From: a virus | Lineage: Duplodnaviria > Heunggongvirae > Uroviricota > Caudoviricetes | Strand: one strand, 5' to 3' | IMG/VR virus record: IMGVR_UViG_2713896784_000030 | Length of the DNA stretch: 3,925 bases | Shown: piece after piece, positions 1,165 to 3,925 of the stretch | Numbering within the stretch: the stretch's first letter is position 1 | How the letters are laid out: each line of letters opens with the position of its first letter | Position numbers and translations under genes: made by a program | The notes under the pieces: generated by a model | Seen by the model: only the letters and a program-made list of their open reading frames with translations | What the model was told of the DNA's origin: nothing | The model's database searches: none

Positions 1165-1205
1165 TTAGGCGTAGCCTATTGACAAGCAATTAGGCATTTC
1201 CTATA
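1165..1205. promoter_or_regulatory. Second operator cluster (OL-like) with the same palindrome family
   Basis: Site D, 1165-1179: TTAGGC-GTA-GCCTAt, perfect core. Site E, 1190-1204: TTAGGC-ATT-tCCTAt, one mismatch. A weaker half-site-like element sits at 1146-1160. Same motif as at 499-565. Confidence 0.5.
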
Positions 1206-1207
1206 GT
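1179..1207 (+). promoter_or_regulatory. Sigma70-type promoter facing rightward toward ydaF-like, xis and int (pL-like)
   Basis: TTGACA (1179-1184), 17-nt spacer, TATAGT (1202-1207), both near consensus. The context cctaTTGACAa...TTAGGC... parallels the minus-strand promoter at 497-526, suggesting a duplicated promoter-operator module on each side of the repressor gene. Confidence 0.5.
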
Positions 1208-1538: not shown

Positions 1539-1652
1539 TGAAATCTGGTAATTAAGGAATCCTCCACGGGGGGAGAGTGGTGCACACGCGCCGGACACAA
1601 GCAAGCATCCGGCATGCTCTTTAACAATCTGGATATCCATAACAGTAAAAAT

Positions 1653-2144
1653 CTACAGATTGCCGTTCAGTTTTCTGGCCAACTCTTCAATAGATGGAGG
1701 TGATACGTAATCCGGATTTTTATTCATAAGAAACTGATTTTCACAGTACAGGCACCTGCTTTTATGAAAAAATTCATATTCTCTAACCGGGAATGGCTGA
1801 AGTATCGATACTATCTTTTGTCCAAAACATTTTGGACAAAGATGCATGATTATGCTGCCGCCGTTCACGGTTACCTCCTTCGAGTACACAAAAGTTCCCG
1901 ACTCAAGTTGGCTAAGGATATAACCTTCCGTCTGAGCCTCAAAGTTTTCAAATTCTGCAATTTTAGCTTTGAGAGAAGCATTTATTTCTTGATAAGTGCC
2001 CACCAGCTCAACGAGAGACACGCATTCGCGCTGAATAGATGCAAGCTTTGAGTTCAGTTCACCAATAGCCGCATTTACTTCAGCTTGAGTTTTTGCCTCG
2101 TTCATTAGTTTTGCAATCTGGGCGGTTTCACGAATAGCCGTCAT
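1653..2144 (-). CDS. Hypothetical protein: N-terminal coiled-coil plus C-terminal CxxC-X24-CxxC zinc-ribbon, no recognisable family (about 163 aa)
   Basis: The ORF-track entry 1653..2321 is trimmed to the internal ATG (plus 2142-2144). An alternative GTG start at 2168 has AAGAG 8 nt upstream. The upstream 5' extension runs through repeat-rich, noncoding-looking DNA. Product MTAIRETAQIAKLMNEAKTQAEVNAAIGELNSKLASIQRECVSLVELVGTYQEINASLKAKIAEFENF... has heptad-like hydrophobic spacing. It continues ...HLCPKCFGQKIVSILQPFPVREYEFFHKSRCLYCENQF... with two CxxC pairs. No hydrophobic stretch long enough for a transmembrane helix. Convergent with the ydaF-like gene and opposed to the pL-like operon. Confidence 0.6.
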   Translation of the reverse strand: MTAIRETAQIAKLMNEAKTQAEVNAAIGELNSKLASIQRECVSLVELVGTYQEINASLKAKIAEFENFEAQTEGYILSQLESGTFVYSKEVTVNGGSIIMHLCPKCFGQKIVSILQPFPVREYEFFHKSRCLYCENQFLMNKNPDYVSPPSIEELARKLNGNL

Positions 2145-2182
2145 TGCTGCCGTTAATTCAGCGATCACATTCAATACTCTTA

Positions 2183-2228
2183 TTGTTGTTGGGGATATCC
2201 AGATTAACAAGATCCTTGTTGTTGGGGA
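2183..2228. repeat. Two exact 13-bp direct repeats, TTGTTGTTGGGGA, 33 bp apart
   Basis: Copies at 2183-2195 and 2216-2228, each followed by (A)TA. They lie 40-85 bp upstream of the start of the minus-strand hypothetical gene. Confidence 0.6.
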
Positions 2229-2354
2229 ATAACGGGGACCACCTCGCCTGACGTGGTAAAAAGCAGGCACACAACACGAAAGCACACGGCGAGGGACACC
2301 ATTAAATGGTGGCTTAAGCAATCACGCGAAGCGCAATCTGCCATTATGACCGAT

Positions 2355-2405: not shown

Positions 2406-2507
2406 TTCGAAGGTGAGCGCCATAATGCACTTGATGACGCCCGTTACCAGGCAAAATACGTTTCAGTTATCTGGCAAAAACTGATCCCGAGTCAGGCTGA
2501 TTTTTAA
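2406..2507 (+). CDS. 3' end of a DnaQ-like (DEDDh) 3'-5' exonuclease gene; 5' part lies in or beyond the gap
   Basis: The post-gap reading frame gives FEGERHNALDDARYQAKYVSVIWQKLIPSQADF then TAA (2505-2507). HNALDDARY fits the Exo III motif (H-x-A-x-x-D-A) that lies near the C-terminus of DEDDh exonucleases. Only this terminal segment is visible. Confidence 0.45.
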   Translation, partial: FEGERHNALDDARYQAKYVSVIWQKLIPSQADF

Positions 2508-2518
2508 TGTTCAACCGT

Positions 2519-2550
2519 CGCCAGTTGTCGTTGATATTCTGCAACTGGCG
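2519..2550. repeat. Perfect 9-bp inverted repeat (CGCCAGTTG / CAACTGGCG) with 14-nt spacer, immediately upstream of the xis ribosome-binding site
   Basis: Plus 2519-2527 is the exact reverse complement of 2542-2550. It lies between the exonuclease stop (2507) and the GGAG (2557-2560) of xis. There is no downstream T-tract, so it is not a classic intrinsic terminator. Confidence 0.5.
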
Positions 2551-2568
2551 CGTTCCGGAGTGATAGCC

Positions 2569-2838
2569 ATGAGCGAACAGTACCTGATAACGCTCGACGA
2601 GTGGAAACCAAAACGGTTCAGTCTCCCAATAACAAACACTACCCTGGTGAAATACGGAAAACTAGGATACATCGTTCCAAGACCACAAAAAATTCGTGGG
2701 CGTTGGCTGATAGATCGCCGAGCAGTATTTGTTGGGCCTGGTGAAACGGGAATTGCGCCGGAAATTCATACTGGCGATGATGATGCACTGAAGGAGATTT
2801 TAACTCATGTCACCGAGGCCACGAAAAAACAGCACTGA
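2569..2838 (+). CDS. xis: Excisionase (lambda Xis-like), 89 aa
   Basis: ATG at 2569 with GGAG 8 nt upstream; the ORF-track start at 2560 is a GTG that overlaps the SD. N-terminus MSEQYLITLDEWKPKRFSLP... resembles lambda Xis MYLTLQEWNARQRRPRSL.... The 3' end overlaps the start of int by 32 nt, as in lambdoid phages. Confidence 0.7.
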   Translation: MSEQYLITLDEWKPKRFSLPITNTTLVKYGKLGYIVPRPQKIRGRWLIDRRAVFVGPGETGIAPEIHTGDDDALKEILTHVTEATKKQH

Positions 2839-3925
2839 CGTAGCCGGTCTTTACGAAAAGTTTGATCGCAGAACTGGCAGAGTTTACTACCAGTATAAAA
2901 ATCCTGTGACTGGAAAATTTCACGGACTCGGAACAGACAAAGGTAAGGCAGAAAAAATCGCTTCCACAGCCAATCAGCGAATAGCTGCAGCAGAAGCTGA
3001 ATATTTCATGCGCAAAATTGATGAAAGTCCGTCAGCAACAAAACGTCGGGGTATCAGATTAAAGGCATGGGTTGATCGATATCTGAAAATACAGGACACG
3101 CGACTGAAAAATGGAGATATTGCAGCTACAACTCACAAAGAAAAAACTCGAATGGCTGCATACCTGGTTTCCCGTCTGGGAAACCACCCATTGAAAGAAC
3201 TGGAAGTAAGAGACTTTGCATTAATACTGGATGAGTGGCTGGATAAAGACATGGTCAGTACAGCGAGAGTAAATCGTGGATTATGGGTTGATATTTATAA
3301 AGAAGCACAGCATGCAGGGGAAGTTCCTCCTGGATGGAATCCTCCGGAGGCTACCCGTAAACCGATCCCTAAAGTAACCAGAGCCAGGCTCACCATGGAA
3401 GACTGGCAAAAAATTTACAATGCAACGCCTGAAAAACACTTTATCCGTAACGCAATGCTTCTTGCGATTGTTACTGGTCAGCGCCGTGATGACATTTGCC
3501 ACATGCGTTTTTCAGATGTGTGGAACGAACACTTGCATATCACCCAGGGAAAAACCGGAATGCGTCTGGCGTTACCGCTTACACTACGCTGTGATGCCAT
3601 TGGGATAACGTTAAAAGAAGTTATTGATGGGTGCCGAGACAGAATATTAAGTCCATATCTAATCCATAGTCGGCACCAGAAACAACCGAAGCCGATGAGT
3701 AAAGACAACCTGAGCGACTACTTTGCCAAAGCACGGGATCTGGCTGGGGTAATTCCACCAGCAGGAAAAACTCCGCCAACATTTCATGAACAACGCTCTC
3801 TATCAGAACGGCTGTACCGTGCACAGGGTATCGATACAAAAACATTACTAGGACATAAAGTCCAGGCAACCACCGATCGCTATAACGATACTCGAGGTCA
3901 GGAATGGGTTAAGTTGGTTATTTGA
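2807..3925 (+). CDS. int: Lambda-family tyrosine integrase (site-specific recombinase), 372 aa
   Basis: ATG at 2807 with AAGGAG at 2791-2796. Extended similarity to lambda Int as recalled: TGQRRDD vs lambda TGQRVGD, PPTFHEQRSLSERLY vs PPTFHELRSLSARLY, LLGHKVQATTDRYNDTRGQEW vs LLGHKSDTMASQYRDDRGREW. This gives the catalytic Arg, His-x-x-Arg and Tyr in the expected order. TGA stop is the last three bases of the window. Confidence 0.95.
   Translation: MSPRPRKNSTDVAGLYEKFDRRTGRVYYQYKNPVTGKFHGLGTDKGKAEKIASTANQRIAAAEAEYFMRKIDESPSATKRRGIRLKAWVDRYLKIQDTRLKNGDIAATTHKEKTRMAAYLVSRLGNHPLKELEVRDFALILDEWLDKDMVSTARVNRGLWVDIYKEAQHAGEVPPGWNPPEATRKPIPKVTRARLTMEDWQKIYNATPEKHFIRNAMLLAIVTGQRRDDICHMRFSDVWNEHLHITQGKTGMRLALPLTLRCDAIGITLKEVIDGCRDRILSPYLIHSRHQKQPKPMSKDNLSDYFAKARDLAGVIPPAGKTPPTFHEQRSLSERLYRAQGIDTKTLLGHKVQATTDRYNDTRGQEWVKLVI

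Follow-up and report, generated by a model that had tools for sequence, protein, structure and literature searches.

We analyzed a 3,925-nucleotide (nt) stretch of DNA from a Caudoviricetes virus (IMG/VR record IMGVR_UViG_2713896784_000030; the whole stretch is referred to as the window) and find that its minus-strand gene at positions 1653 to 2168 almost certainly encodes a divergent protein of the Rip1 ("ring interacting pore 1") family, i.e., a new, uncharacterized member of a kind of defense system that is already known. By analogy with this family, the protein encoded by the window gene probably defends by the Rip1 mechanism of lysogen expression, ring sensing, pore formation, and abortive infection. 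A first-pass annotation of the same DNA had left the gene unassigned and held that no family could be named for it from the sequence, a statement that is now superseded, the Rip1 family having been named and its structure solved in 2026 (PDB 9oox).

Rip1 in PDB 9oox is the only significant match in the PDB, both by sequence profile and by Foldseek. The single window sequence retrieves it with phmmer (E value [E] = 7.2e-7, with an alignment spanning both CxxC pairs), and a profile of 39 homologues retrieves it with hmmsearch at E = 9.7e-29 (profile positions 4 to 151 against chain residues 14 to 159), the next match lying at E = 0.09. An AlphaFold model built on the homologue alignment (mean predicted local distance difference test score [pLDDT] of 90.6) matches chain M of 9oox in Foldseek with E = 3.9e-7, a probability of 1.0, and a template modeling (TM) score of 0.72 (target-normalized) over 120 columns at 28% identity; chains M and L are the sole significant matches, with nothing else below E = 0.09. 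In addition, phrog_1244, for which the listed function is unknown, matches the window protein (E = 2.7e-56) and also takes in HK446 Rip1, JBD30 gp30, and HK620 HkaP. Direct comparison by BLASTP with HK446 gp37 (Rip1) gives 27% identity (E = 5e-13), while tblastn against phage genomes finds relatives in Klebsiella phages (51% identity), in HK620, HK630, and HK629 (HkaP, ~30% identity), and in the Pseudomonas Casadabanvirus phages DMS3, JBD30, and MP42 (~31% identity over ~88% of the length). The Pseudomonas members are themselves just 31 to 32% identical to HK446 Rip1, which places the window protein within the spread of the family. We count 634 cluster representatives of this family at 50% identity; its members are ~145 to 175 amino acids (aa) long, and the window protein, at 171 aa, stands alone, with no partner gene in the 661-bp cassette that carries it.

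The primary description of Rip1 is reportedly that of Patel et al. 2026 (Nature 651:1060). As recounted in passages of a review (PMC13434031), Rip1 is a single prophage protein, non-toxic alone, from which phages escape through mutations in the portal protein (Pseudomonas phages) or in the small terminase (Escherichia coli phages). The same passages describe the small terminase as an 11-mer ring around which 12 Rip1 subunits assemble, with the C-terminal half of Rip1 contacting the ring and the N-terminal amphipathic helices forming a pore, and report dye release from liposomes, holes in cells, and premature lysis (PMC13434031). Homologues are stated there to be widespread in Proteobacteria, chiefly in prophages, and brief mentions of Rip1 in two further papers (PMC13601566 and PMC12908700) agree with the review account. 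The title of PDB 9oox is in line with this, naming a cryo-electron microscopy structure of Escherichia phage HK446 Rip1 with the small terminase of Enterobacteria phage T6, and the entry holds 12 Rip1 chains.

With respect to protein architecture, the features that the first-pass annotation read from the sequence are all recovered. The N-terminal half is predicted to be helical (AlphaFold helices at residues 2 to 24 and 28 to 79), the cysteine pairs CPKC and CLYC lie 24 residues apart, and no segment is suited to span a membrane (highest 19-residue Kyte-Doolittle mean, 1.13), the model being of a fully soluble type. All four cysteines (C111, C114, C139, and C142) are invariant in the 39 homologues, and CPKC and CLYC align with CAQC and CHRC of HK446 Rip1; the homologue alignment further shows invariant G91, V94, Y95, and L123, as well as an SILQP motif. 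An extra helix at residues 160 to 167, in the C-terminal tail, is particular to the clade of the window protein. Two CxxC pairs and a long helix are also generic for zinc-ribbon nucleic-acid-binding regulators with a coiled-coil dimerization arm, and there are weak Pfam coiled-coil matches below cut-off, yet such a regulator is very improbable here: Pfam and NCBIfam return no match above cut-off, Rip1 is all that is matched significantly in the PDB, by sequence or by fold, and Foldseek against the BFVD viral models finds nothing at E <= 0.001. PADLOC likewise gives no match above cut-off, its release used here (2.0.0, from 2023) being older than Rip1.

The minus-strand open reading frame (ORF) ending at 1653 had been described as starting at ATG 2144 and encoding 163 aa. 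The frame exists and does give a product of that length from that codon; its start, by contrast, is most likely GTG 2168, 24 nt further upstream, with a product of 171 aa, as judged from four lines of evidence. First, MIAE(L/F)(S/T)AA is the N terminus of every homologue, and residue 1 pairs with residue 1 in library alignments of the 171-aa protein. Second, GTG 2168 is kept in five diverged loci, whereas the codon at ATG 2144 is ATA (Ile) in the Salmonella homologue. Third, a Shine-Dalgarno-like AAGAG lies 8 nt before GTG 2168, with AGAG kept in 5/5 aligned loci, and inspection of the sequence upstream of ATG 2144 finds nothing comparable. Fourth, the Prokaryotic Genome Annotation Pipeline (PGAP) starts the gene at GTG 2168.

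The comparisons also indicate that the ORF is more than chance, being an intact coding sequence under purifying selection. The ratio of nonsynonymous to synonymous substitution rates (dN/dS) is 0.14 to 0.31 between five alleles, and ORF and leader are 100% identical over hundreds of O157 genomes, with no frameshifts. The gene is found in 646/5426 complete E. coli genomes (~12%), including hundreds of O157:H7, and is labeled "hypothetical protein" in all RefSeq records listed. One compositional claim of the first-pass annotation did not hold, namely, that the ORF contrasts in G+C content with a racR-like gene at about 47%: the values are 41.9% for the ORF and 42.6% for racR, and G+C drops to ~39% in the 3' half of the ORF only. 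An argument for foreign origin from G+C content was rejected on these values.

Positions 1 to 2354 of the window recur with 100% identity in many E. coli O157:H7 chromosomes; strain 644-PT8 has them beside potC, at the integrase end of a Rac-type prophage. The order is a ydaT fragment, a ydaS-like cro analogue (-), racR (+; matching the NCBIfam RacR equivalog at E = 8.8e-74), a pL-like promoter (+), a DUF1391/ydaF-like gene (+), and the window gene (-), after which come a shortened 3'-5' exonuclease pseudogene (+), xis, and int (+). The window gene thus lies antisense to the pL-like operon with its near-consensus promoter and converges on the DUF1391/ydaF-like gene, as had been proposed, and K-12 Rac does have sieB at this place (order racR, ydaG, ydaF, then sieB converging on ydaF). 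The related proposal that a different cargo has been swapped into the sieB slot is likewise borne out: homology between the window and Rac covers 139 to 1519, through racR, and ends inside the ydaF-like gene, from where Rac goes on into sieB, and the window protein has no similarity to SieB.

The shared slot and a leader homologous to that of sieB (see below) could suggest a SieB-like membrane exclusion protein, a reading that we consider next to impossible, given the lack of sequence similarity, the different PHROG, and the lack of a hydrophobic segment. SieB membership was accordingly rejected (BLASTP against K-12 SieB without alignment, E = 40; phrog_6399 for K-12 SieB, phrog_1244 for the window protein). 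The sieB-type position and leader indicate a common slot and regulation, not family membership.

The gene, its leader, and 37 nt of its 3' flank make up a cassette that recurs at 93.6% identity in a CPS-53/yfd-type prophage of O103:H2 and in phage PhiR49_1, and thereby also in an unrelated prophage backbone. The place of rip1 in HK446 is that of sieB in lambda, with N on one side, ral/cIII on the other, and rip1 itself on the opposite strand. Further homologues of the window gene are flanked by dicB and ydaF (a Rac/Qin-type prophage), by cro and replication genes (a Salmonella prophage), or by xis and cI (Citrobacter). In the lambdoid-type contexts examined, the neighbors vary, and the homologues are always antisense to the adjacent lytic operon, beside the immunity region. 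The Casadabanvirus homologues are reverse-oriented between terminase genes, directly upstream of the large terminase gene, which is the Tab moron slot. One family hence occupies two hotspots, with JBD30 (3971-4465) beside the large terminase gene and HK446 (3962-4456) in the sieB slot, both antisense.

The Pseudomonas position between terminase genes could suit a packaging role, which raises the question of whether the window protein has the Rip1 fold and another job, such as timing of its own phage's packaging or lysis, or sensing of a different oligomer with a non-pore output. The low identity to characterized Rip1 proteins (27 to 31%) and the C-terminal tail of its own clade are compatible with this. 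We nevertheless regard it as unlikely, because the pore-forming and ring-binding halves are both conserved end to end, the family is always antisense to lytic operons in the contexts examined, and two family members that are as distant from each other as the window protein is from either are reported, in passages of the review, to defend (PMC13434031). Moreover, a role in the prophage's own lytic cycle is hard to reconcile with the gene being kept where much of the early region has been lost.

A further link to the sieB slot comes from the non-coding leader upstream of GTG 2168. This leader is 77 to 90% identical across homologous loci in which the proteins are 59 to 70% identical, and is therefore conserved above the coding sequence. 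It is 60 to 65% identical to the leaders of HK446 rip1 and lambda sieB and 48% identical to that of K-12 Rac sieB, and is also homologous upstream of HK620 hkaP; it is intergenic in these contexts (locus coordinates HK446 3841-3961, HK620 3862-3982, lambda ~1380-1482, and K-12 Rac 7551-7671). Within it, a candidate weak sigma-70 promoter would start transcription near 2193 and give a 5' untranslated region (UTR) of ~26 nt. A positional weight scan of seven Rip1-family loci, with the lambda and Rac sieB leaders aligned but outside the scan, places a weak candidate promoter at the same position in 7/7, with T(T/A)CCCC at -61, a spacer of 16 to 17 nt, and a -10 element (TAATCT, TATAAT, or TAAAAT) ending at -32 or -33; TATAAT is found in locus L009 and TAAAAT in HK446 and HK620. 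A search of the window against Rfam comes back empty at E <= 1, and RNAalifold on the leader, with five sequences only, finds weak structure with a positive (penalizing) covariation term, so that we make no claim of RNA structure in the leader. An ACCAC...GTGGT hairpin-like element of the leader was considered as a terminator and rejected, there being no T-run in either direction.

The leader also carries a pair of direct repeats, of which the first overlaps the -35 element and the second lies where transcription is predicted to start. Repeat pairs lie 33 to 35 nt apart across loci; CCCCAACAAC occurs twice in the clade of the window gene, while CCCCTACAG makes up both copies in the HK446, lambda, and Rac leaders, so that both copies change alike between clades. 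As possible roles for these repeats, we consider an operator, a UTR element, and a recombination anchor.

Shigella phage SfIV and E. coli phage Kati (both 2501-3042, locus coordinates) have a leader of the window type (87 to 88% identity over 92 nt), followed by an unrelated third cargo, a 144-aa protein (SfIV gp36) of phrog_5286, function unlisted. Its position behind the leader makes SfIV gp36 a candidate lysogen-expressed or defense gene. Since the leader is found before SieB, Rip1, and this third cargo, the slot behaves as a cargo hotspot anchored by a common promoter and leader. More tentatively, and with considerable doubt, the leader with its paired repeats might be a portable expression and recombination platform for swapping lysogen cargos (SieB, Rip1, and the phrog_5286 protein), with repeats that would be regulatory, for example controlling the cargo at the prophage's own induction as a form of self-immunity, and with the phrog_5286 protein as a further defense gene.

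Taken with the homology to Rip1 in sequence and modeled fold, slot and leader support the earlier suggestion that this is a single-gene, lysogen-oriented defense cargo. Under the Rip1 mechanism, a sieB-type promoter and leader of the gene's own would drive weak transcription in the lysogen, in antisense direction to a pL-type operon that is repressed there, and the 171-aa soluble protein would be harmless by itself. Late in the infection by another phage, its C-terminal zinc-ribbon/beta domain would bind the assembled small-terminase or portal ring, and the bound ring would template a Rip1-type ring, as with the 12 Rip1 subunits on the 11-mer small terminase of PDB 9oox. The N-terminal amphipathic helices, so bundled, would form a membrane pore, and the inner membrane would fail before progeny are complete, resulting in abortive infection. 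For the window protein, we infer lysogen expression, trigger, oligomerization, pore formation, and phenotype from the Rip1 family. As pL-like transcription would run antisense through the gene, we speculate that induction of the prophage might damp its expression.

Several observations weigh against this mechanism. A consensus promoter and terminator scan of 1200 to 2354 found nothing, the candidate promoter being below threshold and having a poor -35 element. The N-terminal helices are moderately amphipathic, with a hydrophobic moment of at most 0.44 (maximum in the first helix). Identity to either characterized Rip1 group is only 27 to 31%, so that trigger specificity is not transferable and retention of activity is uncertain, and the Rip1 mechanism itself is taken here from a review, two brief mentions, and a PDB title. 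Finally, the host prophage is decayed, with its early-left operon down to an exonuclease fragment, and the dN/dS values come from copies in different prophages and do not speak for selection on the window copy itself. The gene might accordingly be an inert remnant, an intact ORF whose expression or function has been lost in a decaying O157 prophage, for which the truncation of the adjoining 3'-5' exonuclease pseudogene and the outcome of the promoter and terminator scan would both speak. We hold this to be improbable, in light of the identity of ORF and leader in hundreds of O157 genomes, the conservation of the leader above the coding sequence, and a dN/dS well below 1.

Among known systems, the closest is HK446 Rip1 (gp37, YP_007111990.1), which shares with the window protein its PHROG, fold, four cysteines in register, and approximate length (164 versus 171 aa), and whose gene likewise lies in the antisense early-left slot of a lambdoid phage behind a homologous leader that carries two repeats and, at the matching position, a candidate promoter. 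The two differ in sequence (27% identity), in the start codon (GTG in the window, ATG in HK446), in the longer C-terminal tail and extra helix of the window protein, and in the leader repeat (CCCCAACAAC versus CCCCTACAG). The Rip1-type proteins of Casadabanvirus (JBD30 gp30, the DMS3 homologue, and D3112 orf25) show ~31% identity and the same PHROG, and their genes are, like the window gene, reverse-oriented morons with their own expression signals; unlike it, they sit in the late-operon slot of a Mu-like phage and not in the sieB slot. HkaP of HK620 (also in HK630, HK629, and an Stx1a [Shiga toxin 1a] phage) is ~30% identical, in the same PHROG, and in a clade other than that of the window protein. 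It was labeled "putative superinfection exclusion protein" in 2001, a label that fits its position, and was never characterized as HkaP; literature searches on hkaP, and on PhiR49, PhiR29, and ECOR13, found nothing relevant.

The SieB genes of lambda, P22, and K-12 Rac resemble the window gene in slot, orientation, and homologous promoter and leader, whereas SieB is a membrane protein and the window protein is unrelated to it and has no hydrophobic segment. SieB is said to be a lysogen-expressed abortive-infection function (Ranade and Poteete 1993). Compared by description, Tab (JBD26 gp31) and TerI (Listeria phi10403S) are also small prophage proteins directed at late assembly components of the invader (for TerI, the terminase complex). 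In contrast to what is proposed for the window protein, a pore is not part of the description of either, the step blocked being tail assembly for Tab and packaging for TerI. Both are accompanied by self-immunity genes (anti-Tab and anti-TerI), and a partner gene was not seen at the window gene.

A gene present in ~12% of complete E. coli genomes thereby gains an annotation, as a candidate defense gene of the Rip1 family. If the proposed mechanism is true, it would give a cryptic O157 prophage an extra layer of abortive infection, which could affect the growth of lambdoid, Stx, and T-even phages on O157 and would bear on phage therapy, biocontrol, and Stx-phage traffic. The clade of the window protein is as far from both studied Rip1 groups as those are from each other and is therefore a useful third point on ring specificity, while the sieB-type leader offers a sequence handle for finding further cargo genes in the hotspot. 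The points of remaining interest are what triggers this clade, how prevalent it is in O157:H7, and the common sieB-type leader. The coordinates of all features are collected in Table 1.

Table 1. Positions of the Rip1-family gene, its leader, and associated features in the window
Feature	Positions	Strand	Basis or remark
Rip1-family coding sequence, 171 aa	1653..2168	-	GTG start 2168-2166, TAG stop 1655-1653
RefSeq WP_000559928.1, the protein of this coding sequence	1653..2168	-	labeled "hypothetical protein"
N-terminal helical half, aa 1-79 (helices 2-24 and 28-79)	1932..2168	-	AlphaFold model; corresponds to the pore-helix part in Rip1
C-terminal beta/zinc-ribbon domain, aa 84-150	1719..1919	-	model strands; corresponds to the part touching the small-terminase ring in Rip1
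CPKC, first cysteine pair (C111 and C114)	1827..1838	-	read from the sequence
CLYC, second cysteine pair (C139 and C142)	1743..1754	-	read from the sequence
Shine-Dalgarno-like AAGAG	2177..2181	-	8 nt before GTG 2168; AGAG kept in 5/5 aligned loci
sieB-type non-coding leader, conserved, ~105 nt	2169..2276	-	alignment across loci
Candidate weak sigma-70 promoter	2201..2229	-	-35 TTCCCC (2229-2224), 17-nt spacer, -10 TAATCT (2206-2201)
Direct repeat copy 1, CCCCAACAACAA	2216..2227	-	overlaps the -35 element
Direct repeat copy 2, CCCCAACAACAA	2183..2194	-	where transcription is predicted to start; 33 nt away from copy 1
Mobile cassette (leader, gene, and 37 nt of 3' flank), 661 bp	1616..2276	.	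blastn boundaries
pL-like early-left promoter, TTGACA-17 nt-TATAGT	1179..1207	+	near-consensus; 11/12 consensus matches

In the remainder of the window, we note some features of the surrounding prophage. Positions 2355 to 2404, given as 50 N, correspond to 233 nt in O157 chromosomes (locus coordinates 11355-11587), and the sequence hidden by this N-run is the interior of the 3'-5' exonuclease pseudogene, which lacks its N terminus (~2289-2507). This pseudogene and the ydaF-like gene are all that is left of the early-left operon between the window gene and xis. Relative to K-12 Rac (8300-8466), ~140 nt comprising most of ydaG are missing at 1373 to 1398, as a consequence of which the DUF1391/ydaF-like gene forms the end of a longer ORF of 76 codons (1308-1538), where PGAP annotates just the 51-aa ydaF portion (1386-1538). 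A near-consensus pR-like early promoter (TTGACA-18-TAATAT, 526-497, minus strand, 10/12 consensus matches) is divergent from the pL-like promoter, with racR between them, and each of the two lies amid TAGGC/GCCTA palindromic operator-like repeats (~500-560 and ~1160-1200, respectively).

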